The notes under the pieces are model-generated. The model searched no databases. It was given only the letters and a program-made list of their open reading frames with translations, and was not told the DNA's origin. Source: a virus. From it: a stretch of 64,000 nucleotides of DNA. The position numbers and the translations under genes were made by a program. Below are positions 1,741-52,760 of this stretch, piece by piece. Position 1 is the stretch's first letter, and each line of letters begins with the position of its first letter. The stretch covers positions 7,768-71,767 of the IMG/VR virus record IMGVR_UViG_3300006921_000010, one strand, 5' to 3'.

Positions 1741-2256
1741 TTAATATCTCCCGATTTTACCTGGTCTACTATAGTTTGGGTTGTTAACTTTTTTAATTGA
1801 ACGCTCAAGCATGTCCCAACCTCTTTGTAGTTTAAAATCATGCGGTGCATCCTTGTGGGCGTATCTGTATCTATGAATATGTTTATCCTTATTACTTTCA
1901 ATAGAGTTAGCAATATGTTCATCTCTACCTTTAAGATGTTCAGCGTCATTAAACTCTATATGAACTTCATCGTCATTTTTATCAAAACTATGTATTGTAA
2001 TTCCAGGTATTGGTTTATCCGTAGTAGTAGCCCCGTGAGGGTTCCATACATACGTCCCGTCTATTATATTTGTAATCGCTTCATACACTCTGTCTCTATC
2101 GGAGGGATAATCAAACTCATTCCATAAAATATATGTCTTTTTGAATTGCTCAGTATGTGAGTCTGCAAAATATCTTTTTAAAAACATATACATTTTAGTT
2201 ACATGTATACCATGTGGGTTACGTGGATTAACCTTCAATATTTCTTCCCACATCAT
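1741..2256 (-). CDS. Hypothetical protein with N-terminal WxxILK motif
   Basis: 171 aa, begins MMWEEILK, overlaps the portal stop codon. Confidence 0.6.
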   Translation of the reverse strand: MMWEEILKVNPRNPHGIHVTKMYMFLKRYFADSHTEQFKKTYILWNEFDYPSDRDRVYEAITNIIDGTYVWNPHGATTTDKPIPGITIHSFDKNDDEVHIEFNDAEHLKGRDEHIANSIESNKDKHIHRYRYAHKDAPHDFKLQRGWDMLERSIKKVNNPNYSRPGKIGRY

Positions 2257-3914
2257 GGTACTCTCCTTTCTGTTCTTGAATCTACGTTCTGATTACCTGC
2301 TTCTTTAGGTAGACCACTAAATCTTTTATCTGGCCCCGTTTCCATAGAAGGCTTATTTCTTGTTTTTGGTGGTTCAGATTTAACCTTTTCTGCTTGACCC
2401 GCTTCTGCCAAACTAGGTTTATTACCTGCTTCCATCATTTGTCCTAATTGACTAGCATCTATATCAGTACCGGCATAAGGGTCTACTTGAAACTCTTCAC
2501 CTTTACCTTTTTCTCCACCTTTCATTTCTGGTTTTTCTTTAGAATATTTGAACCTACCCTTATCATCCATAGAGACTTCAAAACCTAAGTTTTTAATTGA
2601 ACCTGCTATATTTACTTCCATTTCTCTAAGTCTAAGTCTAGCGATTTCATCTTCTTCTTCTGATGGTGGTAGTTTAAGTTCCCAATCAGTTATACCAAAC
2701 TCTTTGATGATAAAAGGAAACACATAGTTATTCCATATAGTTTGAGCCATTTCTACCGCACGATTAGTAACAAGTATTTGCATACCTTCATTATTCAATC
2801 CACCACTTGCAGAATTATCAGACATAAACACTTTACTTACACCATAGAACCCAGATACCCTATCTCTTAAATCATCTTTAACAGATATATAATCCATTTC
2901 TTTTAGACTGTCCATAAACTTAATCCATTCAATAGAACCCTTGCCATTTTCTGCTTCTATTCCCATTACAGGAATAAAGTGTGGGTCTTGTTCCATCTTC
3001 TCTTTGACCCCTCTCCAAAATGATTTCATTGAGTCAATGTTTCTAGTTTGAACAGCAAGTAATCCTCTAGGCATTCTTTGTTTTGAGTAGGATGAATTGA
3101 CATAATTTTCCATAGCCAATAAAGTAGTGATATGATTCCATAAAGTCAAAACAGGAGACAAACCATACAATCTACTTGGGTTGTATTTACTAAAATGCAA
3201 CACTTCACCTTCGATGAAATGTTGTTCTTCACCATTACATCTATTCACATAATATACAGGGTGCATTGGTGAACCACATTCATCGCACATTGCAGTAGGG
3301 TCTTCTATTATTTGGTCTCTATGATTTAGACAAGTAAATCCATGATTACCCTTCTCGCCATTTTCATCACTATAAATAGCCATAGTTACAGGGTCTCCTC
3401 TATACATTTCTTTAATTTTATGCATTCTAATTTTACCATTATTGTCTAAATAATATTCTTTCTTTAAAACAATATAAGCATCATCCATAATGTTCAAATC
3501 ATCTTCTAATTCTTTTAATATATCTATGAACATTTGGTCTGAGTTATTGACATATCCATCTAAATATTCTTTAGCATACTCTAATTGTTTTTTATTAGGT
3601 TTAGCCAAACTTACAGAACCACATTCTGAACATTTTTCTACGGGTTCATCATGCTCATGTCCACAGTCTCGGCATTTGTAGGCAAACTTTTCTTCCCACT
3701 TATACCCTCTTCTAAATATTTCATTTTTTAATTGAGTAGTGCATGTTCTAACAATAACAGACTGTTGCGCTACATGATAGATTACAGGAGTAGTAATCAT
3801 ATAGTCCGTGGCTTTCTCTTGAATGCCTGGATTAAATGCTCTAGGGTCTTTAGGGGTTGGAGTCCTTCTTCTGAAAAGATTAGTTATACTAAATCTTCTT
3901 TTCTCTTCTACCAT
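2253..3914 (-). CDS. Portal protein with Zn-ribbon insertions
   Basis: Portal-like motifs (EVLHFSKYNPSRLYGLSPV, PRGLL, DMDYI..RDRVSGFYGV); position downstream of terminase; CxxC pairs at YKCRDC, KCSEC and MCDEC. Confidence 0.85.
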   Translation of the reverse strand: MVEEKRRFSITNLFRRRTPTPKDPRAFNPGIQEKATDYMITTPVIYHVAQQSVIVRTCTTQLKNEIFRRGYKWEEKFAYKCRDCGHEHDEPVEKCSECGSVSLAKPNKKQLEYAKEYLDGYVNNSDQMFIDILKELEDDLNIMDDAYIVLKKEYYLDNNGKIRMHKIKEMYRGDPVTMAIYSDENGEKGNHGFTCLNHRDQIIEDPTAMCDECGSPMHPVYYVNRCNGEEQHFIEGEVLHFSKYNPSRLYGLSPVLTLWNHITTLLAMENYVNSSYSKQRMPRGLLAVQTRNIDSMKSFWRGVKEKMEQDPHFIPVMGIEAENGKGSIEWIKFMDSLKEMDYISVKDDLRDRVSGFYGVSKVFMSDNSASGGLNNEGMQILVTNRAVEMAQTIWNNYVFPFIIKEFGITDWELKLPPSEEEDEIARLRLREMEVNIAGSIKNLGFEVSMDDKGRFKYSKEKPEMKGGEKGKGEEFQVDPYAGTDIDASQLGQMMEAGNKPSLAEAGQAEKVKSEPPKTRNKPSMETGPDKRFSGLPKEAGNQNVDSRTERRVP

Positions 3915-3916
3915 AT

Positions 3917-5218
3917 TTAGAACTCCATTTTACTATTCTCTTCTAGTTTAGTTATACCGTCAATATCAATATCCCATGCTTTCCAATCAAATCTGGTATT
4001 ATCACTATGATTATAATATTTCATTAATTTGAATAATTCATCCTTTCTATCTTTATACCAATCTTCTTTTTTATTTTCTTTCTTTATTTTAATTAACTCT
4101 AATAATGCGTTAGCGTTATTTTTCTTTAATTTAAAGTGAGGTAAACACTTGGTTAATAATTTCTTAATGTCTCCTCCAGAATAAAAGTTGAGTCTATTAA
4201 TTAACCTAGTATCTTGTGGAGATTTCTGGTCTAGGTGTAATCTACCCATACCTAATGATTTGTGCATCTCTAACATAAACGCCTTGCCTCTATTACCTGT
4301 TGCTACTAATCCTACTCTTGGGTTATGGTTTTTATCCATTGTAATATATCCGTCTGAATCTATGAATGCGGCTGTATAAGCCCAAATGTTTTTCTTAATA
4401 TCGTCATTTATTTTATAGTGCGCCCCATCTACGTTTGTAATATTCTGTTCTACTGCAAGTTTTGCTATTATTTGGGGGGAACTTCTATCGTATAAGTTTC
4501 TAGGTAATGAATCATGTATCTCTCTTGAGGATATTCCAGGGTTATTACAGACAGAATCTAATATCGCTTTCCTTATACTATCCTTTGGTGATATACTTAT
4601 AGGGGTTTCTTTTATTATTTTCGTGAAGTTTTTCTTTAGAGTTTTCATCTCTTTAGTTAATTCACAATATTTTTCACCATAATTCAAATGTTTTCTTTCT
4701 TGGTCTGCTTCCCAATATTTACACAGAACGTCAATGACTTCTCTCTTCTGGTCTTCAGAAGTTATAGAGTTTAATTTAATTAATTTATCTTCATTATAAT
4801 TCATCTGTCTCAAAGGAGTTTCATACTTTCTTATCCAATAAATACTGCGAATACATTTAGTTAAGTAATCAGAATAATCCTCAATCAAATTATCTATGGA
4901 TTTGGTGAATGCTATTTTAGTTTCACCCTTTAGAGTTCTTCTATATTTTCTCATTGACTTAATTAATGAAGGTATATCTTTACCTTCTATTTCATATTTC
5001 TTAGGATATTCAAAAAGTGTATTTCTAGCCTCAGTAAGATTTATTTTAGCAAAACTAGCATAATCTTTAGCAATATCATCATGGCTTCTAATTGGTTGAG
5101 ATTCTAACCACTTTTGTTCCATGCTTTCTTTAATTCTAGTCATTTCTTCTTTGACTTCTTCTATATTATCTTCTTCATCTGCTAGTTTACGATATGCTTC
5201 TGCTCTTTCACTCATCAT
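3917..5218 (-). CDS. Protein with C-terminal LAGLIDADG endonuclease-like domain, central winged-helix-like segment and helical N-terminus
   Basis: YTAAFIDSDGYI motif and LLTKCLPHFKLKK typical of LAGLIDADG; ILDSVCNNPGISSREI is wHTH-like. Confidence 0.7.
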   Translation of the reverse strand: MMSERAEAYRKLADEEDNIEEVKEEMTRIKESMEQKWLESQPIRSHDDIAKDYASFAKINLTEARNTLFEYPKKYEIEGKDIPSLIKSMRKYRRTLKGETKIAFTKSIDNLIEDYSDYLTKCIRSIYWIRKYETPLRQMNYNEDKLIKLNSITSEDQKREVIDVLCKYWEADQERKHLNYGEKYCELTKEMKTLKKNFTKIIKETPISISPKDSIRKAILDSVCNNPGISSREIHDSLPRNLYDRSSPQIIAKLAVEQNITNVDGAHYKINDDIKKNIWAYTAAFIDSDGYITMDKNHNPRVGLVATGNRGKAFMLEMHKSLGMGRLHLDQKSPQDTRLINRLNFYSGGDIKKLLTKCLPHFKLKKNNANALLELIKIKKENKKEDWYKDRKDELFKLMKYYNHSDNTRFDWKAWDIDIDGITKLEENSKMEF

Positions 5219-5227
5219 ATCACCTAT

Positions 5228-6673
5228 TCAAAAATTAAGTCCCATTATTCCTCTATTTATTCCATAATTAGGTTTAATTGGGCTGTCAAATATCTCCATA
5301 TCATCTAATAATACAAATGAGTCCGTTGAAGTTTGTGCCGCGCTATTAGCCAATGCTAAGGCCATAACTAGGTCATCGTGTGCGCCTACGCCTTCAAACC
5401 TTCCGCTATCAGTAATAGAAAACATAGATAATTCTTCAATTAACATATTAGTTACTGCTCTACTGTTATTATCACCATAAGGTAAGTTGATTTTCTTGTT
5501 TTCAAAGTTCATTTGTAGGTTTAGTATAATCTCTTGTTTCTTTTTTCTAGTTGTATCGAAATCTCTAACATTTAAGTCCGATACTGCTCTTAATTCTTGA
5601 GTAAATGCTTTGGCGAATGTATTTGTTTCATAAAGTATGTTATCCGGCTGAAAAACTTGACCTATTATACGCAATTTGTCTATATTTTCTCTAAAACTCA
5701 CATTTTTGGCTCTATCTACATGGACAATTGTTTTATTCCCTTCATCATCTACCTCTAAAACCATAATTACGTTATAATCTCCATCGGTTGATATAGCAGG
5801 GTCTACACCAACACAATATCTGTATCCTTTATCTCTTCTTTGTCCTAATTTTAGTATATACTCTTTATTTTTAGCATCCTCTAAGTGTTCTATGCCAAAT
5901 AGTGCAGTTCCTGTAGATACAGGAATACATAGATACTCTCTCGTAAACTTTAATGACCCAATTTCAGCCCTTCTTTGCATAAGTGAATCATAGTCCCATC
6001 TCTCAGGCCATAATGGTTCTTCTAATGAATTAAAACAAGGATATTTTCTAACAAAATATGCAGGGTTTTCTTCTAATTGTGAAAATATATCAGTATAAGT
6101 AAAAGGAGTTCCAATCATTCTTAATTTAGCAGTATGATGTAGTGTTGGTATCATGTCTCCAAAGAACCAATCTGTAACTCTAGTAATACCTGCTACACTA
6201 AACTCTTTCAAAGGGTCGTCAATAATAATTTCTTGAGGATGAAGTCCTCTAATCTGAGAACCTACTGACCTTTCTAATACAGAATTACCATTAGTCAAAG
6301 TAATATTACCAATAGCCCATCCCCTAGTAGGTTTATACTGTTTCAATGCAGGGATGTTAAAATATCTATCTATTTCTCTCATGTGAACCATTGTCTGCTT
6401 TTGGTTAGATGAAATATATAGCATTTGAAACGGAGGTTCTTGAAATATAAGATTCCATACTACCCAACTATGCATAAAGACAGATTTACCGTGGTCTCTT
6501 GAGCAAATAATAACTGTTCTATCCGTTGTCTCCATTGATTGTAGCCACTCTTCCATATACTTAGGATACATCATACCCAATACATTTTGAAAGAAGTAAG
6601 GAAAAGAATGTTTAGATAATTCCATGTCCATTCTATGAGTAAAATCTAATTCATTAATTTCCAGAATATTCAC
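5228..6673 (-). CDS. terL: Terminase large subunit
   Basis: Walker A SRDHGKS, Walker B IIIDD, GTP coupling motif, nuclease motifs VGVDPA and HDDLVMALALA. Confidence 0.93.
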   Translation of the reverse strand: MNILEINELDFTHRMDMELSKHSFPYFFQNVLGMMYPKYMEEWLQSMETTDRTVIICSRDHGKSVFMHSWVVWNLIFQEPPFQMLYISSNQKQTMVHMREIDRYFNIPALKQYKPTRGWAIGNITLTNGNSVLERSVGSQIRGLHPQEIIIDDPLKEFSVAGITRVTDWFFGDMIPTLHHTAKLRMIGTPFTYTDIFSQLEENPAYFVRKYPCFNSLEEPLWPERWDYDSLMQRRAEIGSLKFTREYLCIPVSTGTALFGIEHLEDAKNKEYILKLGQRRDKGYRYCVGVDPAISTDGDYNVIMVLEVDDEGNKTIVHVDRAKNVSFRENIDKLRIIGQVFQPDNILYETNTFAKAFTQELRAVSDLNVRDFDTTRKKKQEIILNLQMNFENKKINLPYGDNNSRAVTNMLIEELSMFSITDSGRFEGVGAHDDLVMALALANSAAQTSTDSFVLLDDMEIFDSPIKPNYGINRGIMGLNF

Positions 6674-6942
6674 CTACTTGATTTATTGCCGTGACACTTC
6701 CATTTTCTACGGCTTAAGTTATTAGGGCTATTAGGGTCTTTTCTCCAATCTCCTTTTATCTTATTTGACCTTGCACAATAAGCATCACCCTTACTTGTAT
6801 TGGGTCTAATTCTATCTCCACCATCCTTTGCTTTACCTGCTTGACCGTAAGAGACAGTTCTGTTTCCGACCTTTTTAGAAAACCTTTTTCCTTTAGCCTT
6901 CTTTTTCTTCTTCTTCTTCTTTAAGACATCTTCCCAATACAT
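6670..6942 (-). CDS. Small basic virus protein (YCARS...RKWKC family)
   Basis: Motif SYGQAG...KGDAYCARS...SRRKWKC resembles a widespread phage family; starts MYWEDVLK. Confidence 0.6.
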   Translation of the reverse strand: MYWEDVLKKKKKKKKAKGKRFSKKVGNRTVSYGQAGKAKDGGDRIRPNTSKGDAYCARSNKIKGDWRKDPNSPNNLSRRKWKCHGNKSSR

Positions 6943-7634
6943 TATGGTCTACCCCAAAATCTATTCTTCCATTCGCTTTGTGTAAGTCCCATTGCTTCTT
7001 TTTTGCTAGGTGGATAAGGTGGAGTTTCATATCCCAATGACCTAAGATATCTATGTATCATTCCACCATTAAGTAATGATTTACTGCTCATTTTAGCCTT
7101 AATGTGATTAGTAATATTTCTTAAAGCAATGGCGTTTTCACCCGTATCCTTACTAAGATTTTCTGCATATTTTTCTCTTAGAGTATCCCAAAATTGGCCT
7201 TGAGGCAATAACTCAAAAATGCCTAAATCATTCATGTAAATAGATATTGTATCTTCTAATGCCTGTTTAAACTCTCTTCCTTGTATCTTTTTACTTTTAC
7301 CTCCGGCTCTTTTATACATCATTGATTCTTGACTATGTTCTGATGAAATAGGAGGTGCGTTAGGGTTTCTATGTGATTGAACAAGACACATATCCCAATC
7401 TCTTAACATTTGTTTAAACATTGGTCTTTGACTTTCCATAGCAGTTGTAGAAAACTCTTCAATCATACCTCTAAGTTCATCACTATCTAAATCTTTAAAA
7501 CTATGTAATAAATCATTATTCGCACCCATTTTTTCTAATACACGATAGAGTCTTTCTTTTGCTTCTAACGTGCAAGGGTCTGCCTTTAATATCTCAATCC
7601 AATTCATTTTATTCTTCCTCCCAAAACTGCACAA
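6942..7634 (-). CDS. Hypothetical protein (likely start MNWIEILK)
   Basis: ORF in operon; internal ATG gives the WxxILK N-terminus. Confidence 0.55.
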   Translation of the reverse strand: MCSFGRKNKMNWIEILKADPCTLEAKERLYRVLEKMGANNDLLHSFKDLDSDELRGMIEEFSTTAMESQRPMFKQMLRDWDMCLVQSHRNPNAPPISSEHSQESMMYKRAGGKSKKIQGREFKQALEDTISIYMNDLGIFELLPQGQFWDTLREKYAENLSKDTGENAIALRNITNHIKAKMSSKSLLNGGMIHRYLRSLGYETPPYPPSKKEAMGLTQSEWKNRFWGRP

Positions 7635-7910
7635 ATAACCTATCTAATCTAACTTTCTTTTTCTCTCTAAACACTTCTTCATATCCCTTTATTTGCGCTT
7701 CCCAATATTCCGTGTTCATCTCATACCTATAATATTATTTCTTACATTCCTTTTCTAAATGGACAGCACATAGTTTCTTTTCACATTTTATACATTCTAT
7801 ATGAGCAGGTCGCCAACAATAATAACATGTATCTCCAACAATTTCATCATTGATTGGAACATGTGTTTTTCTATTAATCATAGCCTCCCATCTTGATATA
7901 ACCATACTAA

Positions 7911-13378: not shown

Positions 13379-13950
13379 TATAAGTCCTCCCTATATTGAT
13401 AGTATTCATCTGATTCACAGTCCCACGGTCTATAGCCATGATTACCGCCAAGACTTCTAACTACTTCAGCAAAATGCTCATCACATAATTGACTATTATG
13501 TTGTTCATTTTTATAGACAGCATGAGCATCACAATTTACTTCATCACACTCACACTCATCTTCTCCATCATCATTAAATGATTCTAATTCTGTATCATCA
13601 TCAAATCTAGTTTCTGGTTCTTGTGGTCTAGCCATTAATTTTGGTGCTTTTAACGCATTAAACCATTCACCATCATCTCTATTTCTTAACATTAATCTTA
13701 AATTAGAATGAGGCCTAACAGAATCCATTTCTGCTAATTTTAATGGAGGGGATACATACGCACCAAAATCATCATTCGCATTAGTTTTAGCGGCAATTAA
13801 AGCATCTACTAAATCACCACTATACATTGTTCCTTTAGTCTTTAAAGGAGGATTTTGTTCTAAATACTGCACCATAGCCATGTATCCATCTTCTTGTAAT
13901 TCAGCAAGAATAAGGTCATAGGTTCTGGAATAGTCTTTCTTAAGAATCAT
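13378..13950 (-). CDS. Hypothetical protein with Cys/His-rich C-terminus
   Basis: 190 aa; CEC..C..H...LCDEH. Confidence 0.55.
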   Translation of the reverse strand: MILKKDYSRTYDLILAELQEDGYMAMVQYLEQNPPLKTKGTMYSGDLVDALIAAKTNANDDFGAYVSPPLKLAEMDSVRPHSNLRLMLRNRDDGEWFNALKAPKLMARPQEPETRFDDDTELESFNDDGEDECECDEVNCDAHAVYKNEQHNSQLCDEHFAEVVRSLGGNHGYRPWDCESDEYYQYREDL

Positions 13951-14119
13951 AACTAAATCTCCTATTTAATTTGTTTTTTCTAGCCTTACAACCACAATCT
14001 TTACCTGTCGCTTTGGCTACTTTATCAACAACAGTTTTGATGCCTGTCGCCTTAGTAACCCTCTCAACAGTATCGCCAAGTCCGGTGTCCTCTTTTAATA
14101 GTTTATCTTTCCAACCCAT
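13940..14119 (-). CDS. Small protein not in ORF track (MGWKDKLLK...GLGDTVERVTKATGIK...DCGCKARKNKLN)
   Basis: Translated by hand, 59 aa; GLGDT...CGC..R...LN resembles a common small phage protein; fills the operon gap. Confidence 0.6.
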   Translation of the reverse strand: MGWKDKLLKEDTGLGDTVERVTKATGIKTVVDKVAKATGKDCGCKARKNKLNRRFSYDS

Positions 14120-14120
14120 T

Positions 14121-14666
14121 TCACCAATCTCCTATGAATACATTCTGCCTTTCTAATGCTCTTTTCACGTTCTGCCTCATATGCGCTTCTATCTTTCTAA
14201 CTACTGCGCCTCTAGCACCTGTTGTTATAATAAACTTAGTAGGTTTATCTGTAGGATTATGTTCACCATCATAAGTGCAACGTATTTTCATATGTTGAGT
14301 TTTTCTACTTACTTCAGGAGGCCACTCATCAATAGTAACTCCTGGGATTCCTTCTAATGCTGATTTAATTTTTTTCATTACTTTAGATGAAATAAACTTT
14401 CCCTTAATTATAGTAGATGCTTGACTTAATTTTTTTAACGCCTTTTCATCTAATTCATATAAATGATACAATTTTTTACTTTTACCTTCAACATGTTCTT
14501 TACCATTCATTAGAGTCCCATCAGGATGTTTATGAGTTTCACCAACATACTGTGTTCCATCTTCAAAGAAATGTCTTTCACCCATTCCTTTCTTTACTTC
14601 ACCGTATGTTTCGCAAGGGTCTTTACCGCACCCACAGTTTCGTTTAATTATTTTTTCCCACTTCAT
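14121..14666 (-). CDS. Hypothetical protein with WxxIIK N-terminus
   Basis: 181 aa, starts MKWEKIIK; CGCG..PC and HKHPDGTLMNGKEH motifs. Confidence 0.6.
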   Translation of the reverse strand: MKWEKIIKRNCGCGKDPCETYGEVKKGMGERHFFEDGTQYVGETHKHPDGTLMNGKEHVEGKSKKLYHLYELDEKALKKLSQASTIIKGKFISSKVMKKIKSALEGIPGVTIDEWPPEVSRKTQHMKIRCTYDGEHNPTDKPTKFIITTGARGAVVRKIEAHMRQNVKRALERQNVFIGDW

Positions 14667-23490: not shown

Positions 23491-25299
23491 TGTAAAACCC
23501 CCTTTACAGGATGGTACATACTACCTTGATTATAGAACATATTCGGCATTCTCATTTTCTCACCATTTTTTTGGGGCATATTTTTTAGACCTTTTTTATC
23601 CTATTTTTGGGGTGTTATTTTTCTGGCACTTGCGTTTATTTTTTTGCTCTTTTTTGTCCATTCCCAGAATAAGAATTAATTCATTACCTGTAGTGAGGGT
23701 TTATTTGAGCATTGGTGGTTAATGTGTATTCTTTTATTGATTCATTTGTATCCTTGATGCACCGCGAATTAATTATTAATAGCGATTCATACATTGATGC
23801 TCAACAGCCTTCTATTAGACCCACATGAGTAACACTATATTAATTTAGGGTTTCTAAAGACAAAATCTTATGTCAATTAAAATAAAAAAAAATCGAAAGA
23901 CAAAGCATATGGTGGGAGAAACGTAAAGCGTTAACCACTGATGATGGTCTTACTCTCCCTCGGAATAACGTATAGTTGCGTTAAGCAATAGTAGAGAGGA
24001 GGGGAGACCAGAAGAAGGAGGTTAAAGCAGTGTGAATGAATCACACCTTAAGGGTCGGGTTTAATCACATAAAATATCAGTAGTTGGGTGTGATATCTAC
24101 CAAGCATTCTCCGTGCGTAGTTTCAATAGACGTTTCACTGATGCTTAATGCATCACCTTTCACCACTGCACACGAATGCTGGAGATACACTCCCATCTAT
24201 CTGCATCTTTTATGCAACCATATGGGTGTAGCGTAGCGTTAAGCAGCCTTAAGGATATGAAACGCTTCGCTGTTACATCATCCTGCTATTTCTAGTTAAA
24301 AGCATTGAAACGCTTCACTTTTACTGAATGTTTCATCACAACACTTTTACCACTACGTTACTAAAAATATTGAAGGATGTAATTTAATACCATATGATTG
24401 TGCATTAAGCACACTGTTGTAAGGGAGGTCGGTAATGAAGCAACGTGAAACGGCCTGAGTGGACGTTGACCGAACAAAAGGTGAGTCCCAATCTATTAGA
24501 TTGAACTCGCTACGCTCAAACAAATACAATCATATGGTATCATAAACGTAGTTTAGATTATCCCCAATGCGGTCACAATTCTTAGCGACACACCAACCAC
24601 TCCCGTTGTTTATTGCTAAACGCATATCTACTAAGAATGCGAACCATATGGTAGTGTTAAGTTATATCTGAGTTTACTCTGTTTAGGCAATGGAGGAACG
24701 AGGTGAACTGGTAAGTATTATCACGCAAACATACATAAAACGAATAGTGCATTAAGCACAGTTGTATGTGGCGGCTTAAGTAATACTTACCGTGCAACCA
24801 TGTTCCGCAATTTGCCTAAACGGAGTAAAGTCAGGGGAACTATTATCAATACCACAAATGTGGTTATTATTGACTCTATATAGGAAGAAGACGATATCAT
24901 CATGCTTAATGCATGGTTCTAGTGAGTGCGAGGCGCACTCCAAGAACATCTGATATTCAACCGTCTTCTCCTATATCTCCCCGAATATAACCATATGGTA
25001 GTGTTAAAGTGTAGGTTACTTTACCTAAGTCTTCGGAAACTTTCAAGGCTAGGAGAATATTTAACAGCATACATACGCGCTGAACCTAAACTGGTTCAGG
25101 TAAGTAATGTATTGGCATTAAGCCAATGTTTATTTGGACTAGCCTTACAGTTGGAAGAGACATTAGAGTTACAGTATACTAAACAATAACATCTACCCCA
25201 TGTCGTCTCCTCCCCAGGTGTCTCCCCTTCTGGTTGTTAGCATAGTATCCATAGAACGGCTTAATGCCTTATAGTTCTATTACCTAGATACTATTACAA

Positions 25300-25360
25300 C
25301 CATATGGTGTTATACTTTGTGGTATAACACCTTAAATACTAATCAATATCTATTATAATG
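25300..25360 (+). promoter_or_regulatory. Cassette promoter A (archaeal TATA-type)
   Basis: CCATATGG-N6-ACTTTGT-N9-CCTTAAATACTAA-N-ATTATAATG; TATA-like TTAAATA at 25332-25338, ~26 nt before the inferred start; layout conserved in four copies. Confidence 0.7.
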
Positions 25361-25767
25361 TCGAGGAAACGTAACTCGACATGAGTGTGCCAGAATAAGT
25401 CCGTTATCTAGGGCTAATGGAATGCCATGTTCTGTGGTGGAACAACGAGGCCGATAATAATAAGTCGGTCAGTGAAAGGAAGGTAACTCTTCTATGGTAA
25501 GTTTTCTGGGGTGAATGCTACATGCGAATATAGATACCCATTCAGAATTGGTGGACGGTAGAAATATCAACCCACTCACTCCCCTGTTTTTCTAGTTTCA
25601 AGGATTGAGCCAAACGATAGTTTAATGGACTCATAAAATAAAAAACTAGACCACATAAACGAGTGGGAAATAGAAGTGGAAATCCCGTAAGTTATTCCAG
25701 TGCATCCAACCGAAAGGCTAGCCATTAGTGCGTTAGTAGGTTGCAGGTGTTATAAACAACGCTCGAC
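25359..25767 (+). ncRNA. Putative ~410 nt structured non-coding RNA
   Basis: Follows promoter A; no ORF of 60 aa or more; several nested complementary segments and a CCGAAAGG GNRA hairpin. Confidence 0.45.
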
Positions 25768-26604
25768 CTTGTGGGTTTATTAACAAAGTATACACCCATA
25801 TGGGTGTAGCCCTTAAGGAGACTTTTTCGTTATTATTTCATGGCTTCACGCTTTTTCACATTAATTGTAATCAAGTGCTAAATGCACTATACCATGTTAA
25901 AAAACCTTCACCATTTCAAAAATCACAAAAAACCATTTCATTGTTCCATATGGTAGGAGTCTAGTCTCAGGCATTATGCCTAGAACCGTGGTGGGAAGAC
26001 TTAGGCCGACCCCAAACGTATTGGGGACTATCTATACTACGTTATGACACCATATGGTAGTGTAAAGAAAGGAACAGGATAAATATATTTATGCGGGTAT
26101 GGTGTGTGCGATTACGGTGCTTTTCTAGTATTATGAATAATACAGTATAGGGCATTTAGCCCTTGTATTCATAATGCGTATAGGGAAAGCACGTATACGC
26201 TACACAAATGTCCCGCATAAATATTATTTATTCTAGTGATTCTTATCATCTACCCGTCTTGAGGGCGGGAGACTTCAGGTTATCTGGTGTTAGACTTGGC
26301 TTAACGCCACTTCTTAGTTTCTATGAACTAATAAGAATAGTTCTTCCTAACACCATATGGATGGGGGGCATTAGTCATACAAAGGACATTAAGTCTGCTA
26401 CGAAGTAGATTTGACAATGCTCTCTCTCCACATAAAGTTTAAGACCTGGGGCAAACTATGTATTTGTATCGTTAGATAAACTACTGCCGTTGGCCGTGTT
26501 TATCACGAACTGCAACCATATGGTGGGAGTGGTAATACTTTGTTAAAAGAACGTGAACCTGAAAAAAGGGACAAAAAGAAGGGTGAAGGTGGCCTATCAC
26601 CTAA

Positions 26605-27144
26605 TCACTCTTCTTCTTGTCCCCCATTATCTACTACATTAGGATAACCTTCTAGTGTGAAAGTCCCATCCCAGAAATAACGCTTTGATACGTCATTCTT
26701 AGCATACGCATTGTAGCATTGACTCAAAAATAAGGACATAACCTTAGTTTGATTGTCAGCGTATTCTGTGCGGCCATCATCCATATCTCTATAGAGGACA
26801 CCGCCGGATTTACCGTGTGTTTTAGCAAAACCGCGTTCTTGATTGTATGCTACGTCATATTGATACTGCCAATAATCTGCTTTGTATGTATCAAAATCCG
26901 ATTTAATAGCGGTTGTCATCAATGACCTTCTACCGCCGCCAATAGGGGAATTGCTCAAATCAGCAAATATCCCACTAATGCTAGACCAATGCTTCTTACG
27001 AAGGTCGCTTTGCATGTCACCTATCGCAAATAGTCCATCAGCAATGACTCGTCTACCCTCATGTTGAGGGTTCGCATCGAACCATTCTGCAATCAATTCT
27101 TTCTTCGCATTCCATGTGTTATCTTCCATACTGTAATCTACCAT
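26605..27144 (-). CDS. Cassette-encoded orphan protein, paralogue of 29338..29847
   Basis: 179 aa; own promoter, GGAGG SD; shares N-terminal ME..W and HGKS.G, YA, WDGT and terminal QEEE motifs with the paralogue. Confidence 0.8.
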   Translation of the reverse strand: MVDYSMEDNTWNAKKELIAEWFDANPQHEGRRVIADGLFAIGDMQSDLRKKHWSSISGIFADLSNSPIGGGRRSLMTTAIKSDFDTYKADYWQYQYDVAYNQERGFAKTHGKSGGVLYRDMDDGRTEYADNQTKVMSLFLSQCYNAYAKNDVSKRYFWDGTFTLEGYPNVVDNGGQEEE

Positions 27145-27191
27145 AATTTATTCCTCCAAGTTATATAAATAACTAGGTGTTAGGCCACCTT

Positions 27192-27252
27192 CATTACAGT
27201 CATTTTAACTTACTATTTAAGGTGTTCATCCACAAAGTATCACACCATATGG
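27192..27252 (-). promoter_or_regulatory. Cassette promoter B
   Basis: Minus strand CCATATGGTGTGATACTTTGTGGATGAACACCTTAAATAGTAA...TAATG, nearly identical to promoter A. Confidence 0.7.
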
Positions 27253-28472
27253 AACAACGAAGTGGTAATTGGTAATTGCTTGTAGCGAAGAGTAATTATA
27301 TATTAGTAAGGACATTAAGTCCTAGCAATACGTTGAATATATAATTGTGATTGAGCGAAAGAATTAGCCATTCGTGCCTTAAGGGTTACACCCATATGGT
27401 AGTGTAAAACGATAGACGTTATGGGTTGTAAGGAGACTTGTCATCGTCTAGTCGTAGAGTAACGATGAGAAGCATCCGTCAAGACATGTTGTCGGCTTAG
27501 TTGGTACAATATCCGATATCTTGGGATTGTAAACTGTCCTCAAGATGTGGCTTAATGCCACTTACATACGTTTATCAACCATATGGTTGGTCATAATTGA
27601 AATACAGTTTGATGTGAACATTTAGGTATCAATAAGGTAGCGCAGTAATAGTGCTACATTACTTATACCGTGAACATTGTAAACTGTGTAATGTATAGAC
27701 CATGCCCCATTTTTGAATGGGGTCAAGCCCTAAACCACGTTATTTACGCTTAATGCGTATTTTCTCTTGTCCATATGGTTGTTAATAGACTGGTCTATAA
27801 CTTACCCCATTGTGGAAACCGCTAACGTTGTCCTTGCCTAGCAAGTGTTCTTAATGACACATTACAACAACGCTACTTCCATATGGGTGTGCATTAAGCA
27901 CAGGGTAAAACATAAACCCCCAAATGAGGATTATACATGGCGTTCCGAGAGGAAACCTCCTCCACTAACAATGTATAACCATATGGTTGCATTAAGCAAG
28001 GAACGTAGTATAGAGGTCTAGGGCGGCTCTGACCGATTAATACTACGAGACATTTCCCGATTGCCAAAAATGGGATTGACTTCCGCTAACCGCTTAACTA
28101 AACTACGCAAATGTTTCCATTTTCGTAGATTATGTAAAATCAACCATATGGTAGTGTAAAGATGGAACTGAAGAAAAATATATTTTTCTGAGAGTGCAAA
28201 GAGTGGGGTTTTGCAGATTCAGATGATATTAATTTAGCATTTAGTGGCATTAAGCCACTGCGTAATATTATCGGTTAAAACTCTGTAAAGCCCCCTTTTG
28301 CACCTTGTAAAAATATATTTTGTCTTTGAGTGTATTCTTATCATCTACCCGTCCTAACATCCGCCCCTCTGGTGCTAGACTTGGCCTAATGCCAACTGAC
28401 TAGATTATAATCTACACAGTATCGTTTTATCTAACACCATATGGTTCTAAACTTTGTCTATAGAACCTGAAG

Positions 28473-28688
28473 TTAATCTTCAGATTCCCCCGTTATAGAC
28501 ATATATTCGTCTAAAGCCTGTCTTAATTCGGACATAACCATAGAAAGGTCATCACCAGATACCTTCAATTCCTCAATAGAGAGGACAATGTTCTGTCCTG
28601 ATTTCATATGCTTTAATTTGATAGCATATTTAGGGGCATTTACTTGTTGTATAATAGTAGTAGTTTCGTTATTCATTAAAATCACCAA
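28473..28688 (-). CDS. Cassette-encoded small protein
   Basis: 71 aa (likely start MNNETT after GGTGA SD); downstream of promoter C and a structured leader. Confidence 0.6.
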   Translation of the reverse strand: MVILMNNETTTIIQQVNAPKYAIKLKHMKSGQNIVLSIEELKVSGDDLSMVMSELRQALDEYMSITGESED

Positions 28689-28798
28689 AGGGTGAGACAG
28701 CCCTTAACCAAGTGGCTATACTTCCAATAAATACGTTTAGATTGTCTCATGGCATCATCACGTTGTTGGATAGCGGTCAAGCATTGGTGGGCTGTCTA

Positions 28799-28860
28799 CA
28801 TTATAATAGATATTAGTTAGTATTTAAGGTAGTCCTTAACAAAGTTGTCCTACCATATGG
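28799..28860 (-). promoter_or_regulatory. Cassette promoter C
   Basis: Minus strand CCATATGG-N7-ACTTTGT...CCTTAAATACTAACTAATATCTATTATAATG. Confidence 0.7.
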
Positions 28861-29231
28861 TTCATCGTAGATTGGACAGAACCAGATTTTAGGGCTTACA
28901 CTTGGTATTGTAATCATTGCATCTGCGCTTCGTTGGCTGAATACGCCTGATAAAGAAATATCAGAAGAGTATATGTATTCATCCTTTGAAGACTTGATGG
29001 AATGAAACAATCCCTTCGCTACAACCATATGGAGGGTCATGAAGTGATAAAAGGTAATGTATGAACATAACAGTATGAATAAGGTAGCGCAATAATAGTG
29101 CTACCTTAGTAATACCGTGAAATACATTATTTGTTCATGATAGATTTCTCCACACAAATGAGGTATCCCCACTTACGTTTTGCAGAGGAGATGGCTTAAT
29201 GCCATATATCTCTAATTTCTCAGCAAGCCTA

Positions 29232-29289
29232 CCATATGGTTCGACTTTGTCAAGAACCCCTTATATACTAACTATGTTAGATTATAATG
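29232..29289 (+). promoter_or_regulatory. Cassette promoter D
   Basis: CCATATGG-N4-ACTTTGT...CCTTATATACTAAC...ATTATAATG. Confidence 0.7.
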
Positions 29290-29337
29290 TCGCTGACCTA
29301 ACTAAAGGGAAGAAAGGATTATTGGAAGGTAATTAAA

Positions 29338-29847
29338 ATGGAAGAAAGTAATTGGAATAATGTAAAGAATAAAGTAGCCTCATGCTTAGATGGGGATATT
29401 GATAGTGAAATACCTATTGATGTGAAAACATTAGTAAGCATGCTAATGGAGACAGGAGATAATAATGTCGCAAACCGAACCGCACTAGCGGCATCAGTAA
29501 AAGCGATGTTGAAAGATTTCCCATCAGGTCAAGTAGTCTGGAGAAGAGGTAATCAAGGACTATTGTCTATTGAGGCAAGTATGGTTGTTGAAACTGCTTG
29601 TGCAGAAATTAGAGAAGCGGCTCATCTGTTTTTCACCACTACTCAGACTTATTCACAACCCCTGTTACGAAAGCATGGTAAATCTAAAGGCGCACCTGTG
29701 TTTTTAGATGCCGATGACTACGCAAATACTCTAGTGGCTAAAGCCAAGCAAACTGCTAGAGAATTATTCAAATCCAAAGAATGGGATGGTACTACTGACG
29801 GCTTAGATGCATGTGCATCTTATACCGAAGTTCAGGAGGAGGAATAA
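29338..29847 (+). CDS. Cassette-encoded orphan protein, paralogue of 26605..27144
   Basis: 169 aa; GGAAGGT SD; shared motifs as above. Confidence 0.8.
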   Translation: MEESNWNNVKNKVASCLDGDIDSEIPIDVKTLVSMLMETGDNNVANRTALAASVKAMLKDFPSGQVVWRRGNQGLLSIEASMVVETACAEIREAAHLFFTTTQTYSQPLLRKHGKSKGAPVFLDADDYANTLVAKAKQTARELFKSKEWDGTTDGLDACASYTEVQEEE

Positions 29848-30475
29848 TCGCCTTCTGAACTTTAGTTTTGGTCGGCGACAACGGTAGGCAAGGATAGGTT
29901 GAAATATACCTATTCTTGTCTCCAAAACTTCTGGTTCTATGGACAAAGTTTAGAACCATATGGTCACACTAAAGATGTGCCTCAATTTGTGGATACGCAG
30001 ATATTCTTATTCTTTGTCGTTCATAACATATCATCTCCTGAATATCTGCTACCATATGGTAGTCCATAATGAATGGAATGAAAAGGTTTAGGACTTACCC
30101 GAGGGGTTTTTTAGGGTATGCACAAGGACGATTCTCTTGTGCTTAATGCACACTCTCTGCCACCATATGGTTGTAGAGTAATAAAAAAAGAATAGCGTGT
30201 TGTAGAGCGAGGGCATCGAGGTGGTGCCGCGCAGTATATATACTAACTCGATTTGATTGTAATGTCGGCGGCAATTAAAATCTAATGGCCTGTTAAACAC
30301 GCATTCCGCCAATGGCCTATTTATACCTATTACATTTAATGGCTTAATTTATTATACAGTGAATAAGCATAGTTTAGGATTAATGAACCGAGAAGGCTAT
30401 CTATGTATAATATATCTCTTATCTTATACACATATCAATATGGCATATCCTATATGATATGATAGTTTATCGAAT

Positions 30476-30755
30476 ACGTTTCTAATTTCTAATTTGGATT
30501 GGAAATGAGTTTGCTCAAAATGAGTGGGTTAGGGTATAGTAAGTATGTTAAAATTATATATTTATAATATTATAATATTTCTAACTAATATATATAACAA
30601 CTACCTACCTACCTACCTACCTACCTACCCTGATGGGGGGTTAGAAACGTTAGAAATTAGAAATGACAGTCAAAACAAGTTAAATTGTATCAGTTATCAT
30701 AGAGTATCTGGTGCAAAATGTGTTTCCAATGGGATTAGAATAAGGTTAGAAATGC
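30476..30755. other. Candidate replication origin: AT-rich core, inverted TTAGAAA repeats, (CTAC)7 tract and G-string
   Basis: TTTCTAA at 30479, 30486 and 30578; TTAGAAA at 30641, 30650, 30657 and 30746; nearly pure AT at 30548-30600; CTAC x7 at 30601-30628; G6 at 30635-30640. Confidence 0.45.
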
Positions 30756-30834: not shown

Positions 30835-31392
30835 ATGGTATTAACCAAGAAAGAAGAAAAGAAAATAATTAAACGATATAAAGAAGGTATGAAAACAAAG
30901 GACATAGCATTAGAGTTAAATGTTAATCAAAGTAAAGTAACTTCTAAGATTTACCACCTACAAGGGTTAGGTATTTTACCTAAGAGATATGGTAAAGATA
31001 AAGTGTCTAGGAAACATATTATGATGAATAATTTAAACTATACACCAAAGACAGTAACAACACAAAAGAAGTTGAAACAAGGTGCTTTACCAAACACACA
31101 AACAAAGGCTATAAAAGACAGGCAAGTGCTTGGTGAGAACCAGGTCAAAATAGCAGGACTTATGGATGAAATTAAGACAATGCTTTTGGCTAAAAATGTT
31201 CAGTATGGCGACTCCGCTTTACAGCCAGTTAGAGTCTTTTCTACGGCTGACACAACTGAACAAATCAAGGTAAGAATTGATGATAAAATTAATAGAATTG
31301 TGCAAGGTAATGATAGTATGGAATCAGATGAAGATGTGATTAAAGACTTGATAGGTTATCTTGTATTATTACTCATAAATATGAGAGAGTAA
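30835..31392 (+). CDS. HTH fused to a DUF1599/Nmad1-like nucleotide-modification-associated domain
   Basis: N-terminal EGMKTKDIALELNV HTH; C-terminal KNVQYGDS...RIDDKINRI...DLIGYLVLL. Confidence 0.7.
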   Translation: MVLTKKEEKKIIKRYKEGMKTKDIALELNVNQSKVTSKIYHLQGLGILPKRYGKDKVSRKHIMMNNLNYTPKTVTTQKKLKQGALPNTQTKAIKDRQVLGENQVKIAGLMDEIKTMLLAKNVQYGDSALQPVRVFSTADTTEQIKVRIDDKINRIVQGNDSMESDEDVIKDLIGYLVLLLINMRE

Positions 31393-31573: not shown

Positions 31574-31762
31574 ATGGATATAATAGATGAAATAAATAAT
31601 GGAACACAAATACTAATCTTGCGAGACCCTGTACCCAAAGGTAAATTGGGAATATCGTTTATCTTCGATGACGACAAAAGGTTTAACGGAACATTAGATA
31701 TGTTAAAACACAAGCAATTGATACTCGATATTGCTGAAGCATTTGGAGATGAAGAGGAATGA
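31574..31762 (+). CDS. Hypothetical protein
   Basis: 62 aa, GAGG SD. Confidence 0.5.
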   Translation: MDIIDEINNGTQILILRDPVPKGKLGISFIFDDDKRFNGTLDMLKHKQLILDIAEAFGDEEE

Positions 31763-41388: not shown

Positions 41389-41868
41389 ATGGTAAAATGG
41401 ACAAAAGATGAAGAAGAACAAATACTACAAGGTTGGCCTGTTAAAGAGCATAGAGATGCGATAGCAGAAGAATTAGGTAGAAGTAAAGCGGCTTGCGCTA
41501 CACGTTATCGTAAGTTGATTAAAGAAACACCTGCAAAAGATTTGACAGGGGATGCTTATGTTGAGAAGGTTCAACAAATGAAAGAAGAAGTAGTAGAAGA
41601 AATCAAAGAAACTATTACCCCAACAAAAGCGGCACAAGAAATTAGTGAAAAGATAACTGAAATCATAGAACAAAATGAAGCGGAGTTAGCGGCAACTAAT
41701 GGTAAACTAAAAGAAGTAAAAGAAGAATTGAAAGAAGAACAAGTGAATAATGTTGCAGAAACAGTAGAAATACTTTCTACAAAGAAAGACTACAAGTATA
41801 CAGTTAGGATTGTAGCACTATTAACAATACTTGGATGTTCATACTTAGGATGGTATTTGTATGCTTAA
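41389..41868 (+). CDS. Myb/SANT-like HTH, coiled coil and C-terminal transmembrane helix
   Basis: WTKDEEEQI...IAEELGRSKAACATRY; C-terminal IVALLTILGCSYLGWYLYA. Confidence 0.65.
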   Translation: MVKWTKDEEEQILQGWPVKEHRDAIAEELGRSKAACATRYRKLIKETPAKDLTGDAYVEKVQQMKEEVVEEIKETITPTKAAQEISEKITEIIEQNEAELAATNGKLKEVKEELKEEQVNNVAETVEILSTKKDYKYTVRIVALLTILGCSYLGWYLYA

Positions 41869-42409
41869 TGGTAAAGAAATAGATTACACAGGAAGAAGGA
41901 CTAATCTTGTAGATTATAGAGGAGATGACTTTCAGGAATTAATTCCCGATTGGAAAAGAATAATAGAATCAAAATACGAAGATGTATGCCTAATACACAG
42001 GTCTCAACTTAAGAAAACAATAGATGATTTCCATAAAGCAATTTGGGAAATGTCTACAAATGCTTTCGATAAACCTAGAGAGATTCAGATAGTAATTGAT
42101 GGTAACGATAAGTGCCATATTAGTGCTGGAAATCCAGGCTATGTTACATTTGGTGGACAAGAAGAAGGAATCGCAGGTATGAAGTTTCCATTAAAAGAAT
42201 GGATTCATACTCATCCTTTCGGACAAGCGTTTTGGAGTGGCACAGATATGAATACTATTAATATGTACCATAGATTTTTAAACTCCGCTACTGTTATAGG
42301 TAATGGTGAGAAGCAAACATCGTACTTCAGGTATGACGCTGATGGTAATGATTATCATGAATGGACACAGTTTGCATGGGGACAGATAGGTGGAGGTGAA
42401 GAAGAATGA
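41861..42409 (+). CDS. JAB/MPN (JAMM) metalloprotease
   Basis: E (PREIQ) plus WIHTHPFGQAFWSGTD, matching HxH-x7-S-x2-D. Confidence 0.85.
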   Translation: MLNGKEIDYTGRRTNLVDYRGDDFQELIPDWKRIIESKYEDVCLIHRSQLKKTIDDFHKAIWEMSTNAFDKPREIQIVIDGNDKCHISAGNPGYVTFGGQEEGIAGMKFPLKEWIHTHPFGQAFWSGTDMNTINMYHRFLNSATVIGNGEKQTSYFRYDADGNDYHEWTQFAWGQIGGGEEE

Positions 42410-51990: not shown

Positions 51991-52760
51991 ATAGTATTCA
52001 AGTGAATACTAAATCATTTATAGAAGCAATAGAGGCAATTTGGCTTAAAGGTAAATATAAGTCCTCTACTACTTCTAAGACTGATGTTATCAGTAATACC
52101 TGTGTAGCAATTGTTAGAAGTGAAGAGTTAGAGTTATTGAACGGTAATGATAAAACAGCATTGAGTGTTATAATACCAATTGAAGAACAAATCTCAGTAG
52201 TAGAAGAGATGCTTATATTTGATATAGAGAAACTAATGAAATACGTTAAGAATATGAAATGTGTAAATCTTACATTAAGATTTAATCAATCTACGTTAGA
52301 AGTTAAAGGATTAGTTAAAACAGTTAAATTACCAAGACTGTTAGAGCATACTAATATGAATCTAATTACTATGATTATGTCATTTGACTATGAGCATGGT
52401 GGTAAGGCTATATTCGGCAAGACAGAATTACCTTGTCAATTATCATTTAATGGTAATGAATTGAAAGAAGCAGTTAAGTTTTGTTCTGTATCTGGCACAG
52501 CAACATATACTATTGTGCATTGGGGTGGGAATAATGAGTTTAAACTTATGTCATCAAGCAGTAGTGGCACAGATACTAGTGAAGTAAACGTATCATTACT
52601 ATCAGAAAATGATTATGATGCAACAGTTTCATTTTCTGCACCATTAGATAAGTTTTGTATAGATAGTGAGATGACAATATTAACAGGTGATAACTTACCT
52701 GTTATGTTAATTGGGGAAAGTAGAAAGATGGTGGTAGCACCATACGTTAGAAGTGATTGA
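51951..52760 (+). CDS. pcna: DNA sliding clamp (PCNA-like)
   Basis: Size, two-domain beta/alpha pattern ending LPVMLI...VVAP; located between ATPase and PolB. Confidence 0.65.
   Translation: MERNNRTTRGNSLNSIQVNTKSFIEAIEAIWLKGKYKSSTTSKTDVISNTCVAIVRSEELELLNGNDKTALSVIIPIEEQISVVEEMLIFDIEKLMKYVKNMKCVNLTLRFNQSTLEVKGLVKTVKLPRLLEHTNMNLITMIMSFDYEHGGKAIFGKTELPCQLSFNGNELKEAVKFCSVSGTATYTIVHWGGNNEFKLMSSSSSGTDTSEVNVSLLSENDYDATVSFSAPLDKFCIDSEMTILTGDNLPVMLIGESRKMVVAPYVRSD

Follow-up and report, generated by a model that had tools for sequence, protein, structure and literature searches.

Complementary RNA ends are put to several uses. In flaviviruses, influenza viruses and bunyaviruses, 5'-3' complementarity is kept by covariation and forms cyclisation or panhandle structures that act as polymerase signals on replicating RNA genomes. 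In ribosomal RNA precursors, and in archaeal circularisation at bulge-helix-bulge motifs, flanks pair over hundreds of nucleotides into helices that carry cleavage motifs and enclose stable RNAs. For a messenger RNA, the closest described case is the hok mRNA of the hok/Sok system of plasmid R1, in which, according to the section that treats it, the tac/fbi helix between the 5' and 3' untranslated regions (UTRs) stabilises the message and hides the ribosome site until 3' trimming (PMC9841398). Here, we describe two paralogous genes of a DNA virus, A and B, whose messages can each be closed by a helix between their ends. They lie in an array of the palindrome CCATATGG within a 64-kb stretch of DNA (the window), which comprises bases 7768-71767 of the 71.8-kb IMG/VR record IMGVR_UViG_3300006921_000010 (completeness estimate 75%).

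Magroviruses, which this virus resembles, count among the most abundant viruses of archaea in the surface ocean; we know of no cultured host and of nothing on their gene regulation. The main texts of three magrovirus papers (PMC5434244, PMC10160649, PMC11706807) do not use the terms non-coding, palindrome or palindromic, intergenic or promoter. For arrays of promoter-bearing units, two precedents stand out. The PeSL cassettes of T4-type phages are described, in the parts of that report that concern them, as small accessory genes with their own strong promoter and a stem-loop, shuffled at the motif among close relatives (PMC2839356), and the pertinent passage on the haloarchaeal virus HGTV-1 describes a TATA-plus-inverted-repeat motif (PMC3950731).

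Results

The ends of two viral messages are complementary

The features on which the analysis rests are the following.

24218..30170, no strand assigned: ORF-poor array between leftward structural and rightward replication genes, with 23 CCATATGG sites
26516..27252, - strand: cassette A, palindrome to palindrome, with CCATATGG at 26516-26523 and 27245-27252
27214..27222, - strand: TATA box of cassette A, archaeal type (CCTTAAATA on the - strand), with ACTTTGT (27232-27238) between box and palindrome
27174..27193, - strand: 5' arm of the A panhandle, starting 21 nt after the TATA box and ending 27 nt before the ATG
26605..27144, - strand: protein A, 179 aa, isoelectric point (pI) 4.9, helical, with an invariant HGKSGG loop and an EEE tail
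26584..26603, - strand: 3' arm of the A panhandle, directly after the stop codon and followed by T5 and T6 runs (about 26550-26575)
29232..29963, + strand: cassette B, palindrome to palindrome, with CCATATGG at 29232-29239 and 29956-29963, ACTTTGT at 29244-29250 and ACAAAGT at 29943-29949
29259..29267, + strand: TATA box of cassette B, archaeal type (CCTTATATA), assigned by motif and spacing
29288..29307, + strand: 5' arm of the B panhandle, with an outer 11-bp helix, a small internal loop and a 7-bp helix
29338..29847, + strand: protein B, 169 aa, pI 4.8, paralogue of A
29860..29880, + strand: 3' arm of the B panhandle; the first 3' nucleotide able to pair with the 5' UTR lies 1 nt past the stop codon (29848)

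The repeat that brackets the A open reading frame (ORF) is 20 nt long and 95% complementary, with its arms 570 nt apart. That of B, read by eye and recovered by RNAduplex, consists of an 11-bp helix with one G-U pair, a 2x3 internal loop and a 7-bp helix; from the 5' arm a further weak helix can reach the Shine-Dalgarno region. When the 70 nt upstream of each ORF were paired with the 45 nt downstream in RNAduplex, the energies were -35.4 kcal/mol for A and -36.3 kcal/mol for B, compared with a mean of -12.0 kcal/mol (sd 4.1, best -22.7) for the 56 other window ORFs that begin with ATG and encode at least 100 aa. Folding of the whole transcripts placed the terminal helix in both the minimum free energy and the centroid structure of each message; against 20 shuffles the structure z-score of A was -6.16, and against 100 shuffles that of B was -6.87. 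The inverted repeats are real and far beyond chance.

Pairing is retained while the arm sequences change

Profile-guided scans of IMG/VR recovered 27 contigs of 15-96 kb with 25 loci of A type and 14 of B type; removal of identical flanks left 34 non-redundant cassettes, including the two of the window. A 5'-3' helix of 17-25 bp was present in all 34, and in every one the 3' arm started 0-4 nt after the stop codon. Duplex energies averaged -34.6 kcal/mol (range -26.5 to -45.0), against -18.6 kcal/mol for shuffled flanks; 30 of the cassettes outdid all 100 of their own shuffles, and all 34 were stronger than the best (-22.7 kcal/mol) of the 56 other window ORF flanks.

The sequences of the arms vary between clades. 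Exchange of partners showed that a cassette's own 3' arm beat every partner from another clade in 29 of 34 cases (means -32.7 versus -15.9 kcal/mol), the five failures being close relatives passed by a crude clade filter. Since pairing is constant and the arm sequences differ between clades, the pairing itself appears to be selected, and the preference for the own partner amounts in substance, if not by a formal test, to covariation. A first-pass annotation, made from the letters of this DNA alone, had described both inverted repeats and proposed that pairing rather than sequence is conserved; the repeats are as it had them, and the 34 cassettes, with their constant helix and clade-specific arms, bear the proposal out.

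Each gene is carried by its own promoter unit

The array has a G+C content of 38-40%, compared with 30-36% elsewhere in the window, and shows no strand skew. Of the 24 CCATATGG sites in the window, 23 fall within the array, for which 0.9 would be expected. Within it lie four TATA cassettes: 25300-25803 (+), A, 28437-28860 (-) and B. These share a common layout, which runs from CCATATGG through 4-6 nt, (A/G)CTTTG and 6-10 nt to (A)CC and a TTA(A/T)ATA-like box; the first structured base of the RNA follows about 21 nt later, then the cargo, and finally ACAAAGT, a few nucleotides and a further CCATATGG. In the A and B cassettes the full order is CCATATGG, ACTTTGT, TATA box, start, 5' arm, Shine-Dalgarno sequence, ORF, 3' arm, ACAAAGT and CCATATGG. 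The TATA layout is seen in 29 cassettes, and of the 34 non-redundant cassettes all have CCATATGG upstream and 33 have it downstream. Box and spacing fit an archaeal TATA promoter and not one of the -35/-10 type; a TATAAT-like hexamer seen in the window is not retained in relatives.

Each 5' arm begins 21 nt past the last base of the CCTTA[AT]ATA box (A at 27193, B at 29288). The Rfam manA model in a neighbouring cassette starts at 25359, likewise 21 nt after its box, and this identical spacing provides independent support for the inferred transcription start, at which the first-pass annotation had already placed the arms. Downstream of the 5' arm, a Shine-Dalgarno sequence of the GGAG(A/G)TGA kind precedes the ATG by 5-8 nt. 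Beyond the 3' arm, T-runs or a C-UUCG-G hairpin are found in 21 of the 34 cassettes. The palindromes themselves lie outside the A and B transcripts, upstream of the TATA box and past the 3' arm, and for these cassettes CCATATGG reads as a DNA site rather than an RNA hairpin.

The helix is specific to the A/B family

The two remaining cassettes of the array allow the helix to be compared with units of the same layout. The unit at 25300-25803 contains a manA-like RNA at 25359-25582 (+), which matches Rfam RF01745 over its full length at 54.3 bits (gathering threshold 55.2; E 3e-13), and has no ORF of at least 40 aa on its strand. Further matches below threshold (32-44 bits) occur in the arrays of four related contigs (L011, L012, L014 and L021). 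manA was described from marine DNA and cyanophages (PMC2864571), and manA RNAs have been reported to form 10-mer and 60-mer cages (2026 preprint, 10.64898/2026.07.01.735769); many marine manA matches may come from archaeal viruses. The fourth cassette, 28437-28860 (-), carries a 71-aa ORF (28473-28688) behind a leader of about 100 nt, which a stem of its own closes (about 28690-28799); the stop codon is spanned by a 6-bp hairpin whose loop reads ATTAA.

Neither the manA-like unit nor the 71-aa unit showed 5'-3' pairing beyond that of shuffled sequence (151 and 75 of 200 shuffles, respectively, were as good). The 5'-3' helix is specific to the A/B gene family.

Palindromes, and not arms, mark the rearrangements

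A related contig, L006, has an array (1868-7743) that can be compared unit by unit with that of the window (24218-30170). Units are 80-97% identical, and 19 of the 22 window units are matched. Eleven units match full-length (coverage of at least 0.99) and end at palindromes; the order of the units is permuted and six units are inverted. Cassette A corresponds as one block to the L006 unit at 4199-4917 (96.7% identity), and cassette B to that at 6892-7608 (94.7%). The breakpoints lie at the palindromes and not at the arms, and the whole unit moves with its promoter. Of the 12 contigs with both genes, 3 have A inverted relative to B.

Both arms are inside the transcribed part, between start and terminator. 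The 5' arms are G-rich and purine-rich (GC 222 versus CG 130; AT 217 versus TA 82), and 16 internal G-U pairs were counted against 6 A-C mismatches (p = 0.052). Because the breakpoints fall at palindromes and the arms fall inside the transcribed part, the palindrome is a DNA element, associated with unit shuffling, and the arms are an RNA element.

RNA from the array

Six RNA runs contained 6-9% of the sampled words of 24000-30500. Four metatranscriptome runs, from four studies, were examined as contigs, which show presence and not starts, ends or strand. All 17 records from these runs fell on three units: 25375-25769 of the manA-like unit, which contigs of all four runs cover, 26604-27184 of A and 29303-29898 of B. 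A and B are expressed. No contig covered 24000-30500 outside the three cassettes, an absence that we take as no evidence. Contig depth was 160-610 for the manA-like unit and 4-52 for A and B, figures unsuited to ranking the genes.

Three A contigs ended at 27183/27184, 9-10 nt inside the predicted start, and include the inner half of the 5' arm. The B contigs include the whole 3' arm.

A and B are paralogues of a small viral family

The first-pass annotation had treated A and B as paralogous orphans, from motifs common to their translations (MEDNTWN/MEESNWN, THGKSGG/KHGKSKG, YAD/YAN, WDGT and a terminal QEEE). Both ORFs and all of these motifs are present. BLASTP of A against B finds a weak match only (147 residues at 21% identity, E 1e-4); profiles of 24 A and 18 B homologues align over 149 columns at 97.8% hhalign probability (E 7.6e-13), and A and B are true paralogues. 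Their relatives (27 for A, 21 for B) are all unnamed metagenomic proteins. A profile search of 1.84 billion representatives returned 73 proteins, nearly all of 130-200 aa; there were no longer, fused forms among 7999 candidates, and Pfam gave no match for 54 of the 57 distant relatives searched among the 73. The three matches, to two long proteins and one Gly-rich protein, were taken as unrelated.

The orphan status also withstood searches with A and B themselves. Pfam, PHROGs, NCBIfam and PADLOC gave nothing at E < 0.01, and PDB sequence profiles nothing meaningful. The predicted structures are confident helical bundles (predicted local distance difference test scores 87.0 for A and 78.7 for B), and the structural check suggested at the outset, a Foldseek search of both models against the PDB, returned 0 matches at E <= 0.001 and no function. 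In a wider fold search the best Z-scores, 6.7 and 7.3, fell on no more than a generic three-helix bundle at the N terminus, and BFVD yielded one unnamed viral relative. In the ESM Atlas, the matches were unnamed viral clusters, some with a minority portal label (145-162 shared features), which is a lead only. Two basic Gly-rich loops are conserved, G-x-G-R-x-S-L / R-R-G-N-Q-G-L and H-G-K-S-x-G, together with W-D-G and the EEE tail. Of the residues that might serve as the invariant catalytic Tyr or Ser of a tyrosine, serine or HUH enzyme, Tyr118 of A corresponds to Phe in B of the window, and one B relative has Ala in place of the Ser of HGKS. Judged by sequence and predicted model, A and B would be acidic helical proteins, with nothing that marks them as a nuclease or recombinase of the array.

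They had nevertheless been put forward as the best candidates for the array's cognate factor, whether hairpin binder, nuclease or recombinase. The family does accompany the array: 39 of 39 loci carry CCATATGG, 38 of them at least three sites, and when five further contigs were picked solely for having several ACAAAGT-N-CCATATGG motifs, 1-3 family members were found next to the motifs in four, including the two complete genomes. The fifth is a 54%-complete fragment. Because the genes sit inside the array, co-occurrence is not independent evidence that they serve it; the link is real but confounded, by position and by descent. The co-occurrence stands, and the nuclease or recombinase role proposed with it finds no support, neither family nor fold having been recovered. 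The family is small and virus-specific, with 2-3 copies per genome, all within the CCATATGG array.

Two other ORFs of the window that end in EEE, 31574-31762 (+) and 41861-42409 (+), were considered as further members and on comparison were not paralogues. A helix-turn-helix protein (30835-31392) was considered as an alternative DNA-binding factor; its C-domain occurs in two of the five other array contigs and in neither complete one. A related contig, L008, encodes at 13893-14129 (+) an ORF of about 78 aa that resembles the N-terminal half of B only (39% identity over 64 aa, E 1.6e-9).

Further features of the array and its virus

A hairpin stem that closes on the GG of the palindrome and holds CTTTG in its loop (29240-29260 and 27223-27246 in the window, and in relatives) is found at 21 of the 29 flanks upstream and 11 of the 28 downstream, and its stem letters covary (GGTGT/ACACC, GGTTC/GAACC, GGTAG/CTACC). 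Hairpins with TTAAT loops lie 20-45 nt before palindromes in many places in 24128-30151, and on the + strand ATTAA loops directly follow palindromes, as at 27547-27562, 27890-27902 and 28243-28258. A 60-nt element that folds as a long hairpin is present in two copies of 85% identity, at 27615-27674 and 29062-29121. To the right of the last palindrome, 30237-30580 (+) contains no credible ORF, is headed by a cassette-type promoter-like repeat (30237-30267) and is 77% identical to L008 10684-11025, an identity above that of the A and B coding parts; it could represent a leader or a further RNA gene. A Megablast search with the array found zero matches in isolate phage records, and among the matches listed for CCATATGG in the full-text literature there were only unrelated primer or motif uses.

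To the left of 23.2 kb, leftward genes match PHROGs for a portal and a large terminase, with a nuclease-like gene between those two. The rightward genes beyond 30.8 kb encode a ribonucleotide reductase, an ATP-dependent ligase, a clamp loader, a primase, an ERCC4-type nuclease and a family-B DNA polymerase, which is split over two consecutive ORFs, 52753-54426 and 54500-55414 (+). The polymerase finds its best matches among isolate records in haloarchaeal tailed viruses, at about 25% identity. Such a gene set, with split polymerase and ribonucleotide reductase, is given as the mark of magrovirus group B, and a two-ORF family-B polymerase is reported for group B1, in the group B passages of Philosof et al. 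2017 (PMC5434244). On the fit of these features with those passages, and not on a tree, we class the window as a magrovirus-like (group B-like) tailed virus, and infer an archaeal host. ARAGORN found zero tRNA genes in the window; an 84-nt tRNA gene is present at related loci (L011 3741-3824, L012 12342-12425, L014 3505-3588 and L021 5533-5616).

Discussion

A and B are autonomous promoter units that share a conserved, family-specific 5'-3' helix, the 3' strand of which abuts the stop codon. What this helix does is a matter of weighing, and we think the chances slightly better than even that the messages are promoter-autonomous one-gene units closed by a selected helix that controls their stability or translation, in the manner of hok, and are not circular. 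On this model, the 17-25 bp formed by the two arms would close the mRNA into a panhandle and hide both of its ends from exonucleases. It would also gate translation: because the 3' arm begins 0-4 nt past the stop codon, every terminating ribosome would have to melt the helix, and displacement of the 3' arm would free the adjacent 5' arm. Between the 5' arm and the ATG lie 19-45 nt in A-type and 5-20 nt in B-type messages; in the latter, pairing could extend over the Shine-Dalgarno region, a local hairpin being used instead in the fold of the whole B mRNA. The message would then be a closed, stable unit that is self-limiting or re-initiating.

Several observations weigh against this model. The stabilising and translational role of the helix is our inference only. 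Projection of base pairs across 16 related cassette pairs left 247 unchanged, with 11 one-sided and 20 two-sided changes, 65 broken pairs and 29 gaps, a poor score that we put down, without proof, to shifts in register. MAFFT misplaced the 3' arms when whole B transcripts were aligned, so that a formal covariation test was not possible from that alignment. The asymmetry between G-U pairs and A-C mismatches is borderline, and the loci are related and not independent. The RNA data are contigs, which do not fix transcript ends. Sequencing adapters abut 26604 and 26611 in two runs, in A contigs without the 3' arm, and 29307 in one run, in a B contig that retains little of the 5' arm, so that the mature RNA may not carry the two arms together. 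These adapter-abutted ends hint either at trimmed forms or at library bias at a stable duplex.

If they are trimmed forms, two other readings gain in interest. The panhandle could be a timer of the hok kind: messages made from strong stand-alone promoters would stay locked and stable, and become translatable only once one arm is trimmed, which would delay or dose two paralogues. These, perhaps as a heterodimer, would act on the host or the array; contig ends at 26604, 26611 and 29307 would then be the trimmed, active forms. We regard this as unlikely. Equally doubtful, in our view, is that the helix is a processing stem, cut by a double-strand-specific endonuclease that releases the unit from longer transcripts or trims it, as RNase III does in the early RNA of phage T7 and as happens at rRNA precursor stems. 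A helix so long and so nearly perfect would suit such an enzyme, and the missing arms, with adapters at the inner base of the helix (26604 and 29307), are what cleavage would leave. However, excision is not needed: each unit has a promoter of its own directly ahead of the 5' arm and, in 21 of the 34 cases, closes with a T-run or hairpin past the 3' arm. Three A contigs moreover retain the inner half of the 5' arm, and B contigs the whole 3' arm. Somewhat less probable again is an autoregulatory site, bound by the A and B proteins or by a host double-stranded-RNA binder to set translation or decay. Confinement of the helix to the A/B family, its persistence since the two proteins split to about 20% identity, and their two basic Gly-rich loops are all compatible with such a role; yet with arm sequences that are not conserved, a binder could recognise shape alone; the proteins have an overall acidic pI of 4.8-4.9, and fold searches of both found no RNA-binding fold.

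The two readings to which we attach least weight concern ligation and recombination. The first-pass annotation had allowed that the mRNAs are end-paired or circularised. End-pairing is borne out in 34 of 34 cassettes and would juxtapose the 5' and 3' ends for ligation, and circular RNAs are common in archaea. Circularisation itself fared worse and is very improbable: the listed duplexes are plain helices with only single mismatches or symmetric internal loops, in which no bulge-helix-bulge motif (two 3-nt bulges with a 4-bp helix between them) was found, and the contigs of the four RNA runs contain no back-joint, a weak negative since contigs drop rare forms. We give just as little credence to the arms being DNA-level inverted repeats for inversion or recombination of the cassettes. 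The inversion of A relative to B in some contigs and the permuted, flipped units of L006 are what such repeats might produce, but rearrangement ends at the palindromes and carries the promoter along, with no breakpoint seen at an arm; the arms moreover occupy the transcribed part, from the inferred RNA start to the edge of the stop codon, and tolerate G-U pairs more often than A-C mismatches.

The hok-like control that we favour would be a post-transcriptional control defined by sequence, in which a message is closed by its own ends and kept so through deep divergence. It is tied to one orphan protein family, several copies of which are present in every array-bearing complete genome examined. 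The analysis also fixes the positions of archaeal-type promoters and inferred transcript starts for these viruses, and separates a DNA part (palindrome, unit shuffling) from an RNA part (the arms). We know of no end-paired mRNA lock described in archaea, although no literature search aimed at one was made; if the fold-back works as in hok, it would, to our knowledge, be the first such lock in that domain.

The comparison with known systems can be drawn accordingly. The panhandles of RNA viruses belong to genomes, whereas those of A and B belong to mRNAs of a DNA virus. Unlike rRNA precursor stems and bulge-helix-bulge circularisation, the A/B helices flank protein-coding ORFs, and they do so without a bulge-helix-bulge. 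With hok, as far as the description of tac/fbi extends, they share a long-distance 5'-3' UTR helix on a short monocistronic mRNA, here in 34 of 34 cassettes. The settings differ: hok comes from a bacterial plasmid and works with an antisense RNA and a small membrane toxin, whereas A and B are soluble helical proteins of 170-180 aa, from what is presumably an archaeal virus, and no antisense partner of theirs has come to light, none having been sought. With the PeSL cassettes and the HGTV-1 motif, as those passages present them, the array shares a repeated promoter and stem-loop that flank small genes, and the shuffling of units at the motif. PeSL cassettes have sigma-70 promoters, excised mini-circles and, as described there, no invariant palindrome, whereas the present array has TATA promoters and a CCATATGG boundary with flanking hairpins; 5'-3' pairing of the message does not figure in that description, and the panhandle is here an extra layer of one gene family. 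The array itself thus resembles systems already described, and the new part is the family-specific mRNA panhandle.

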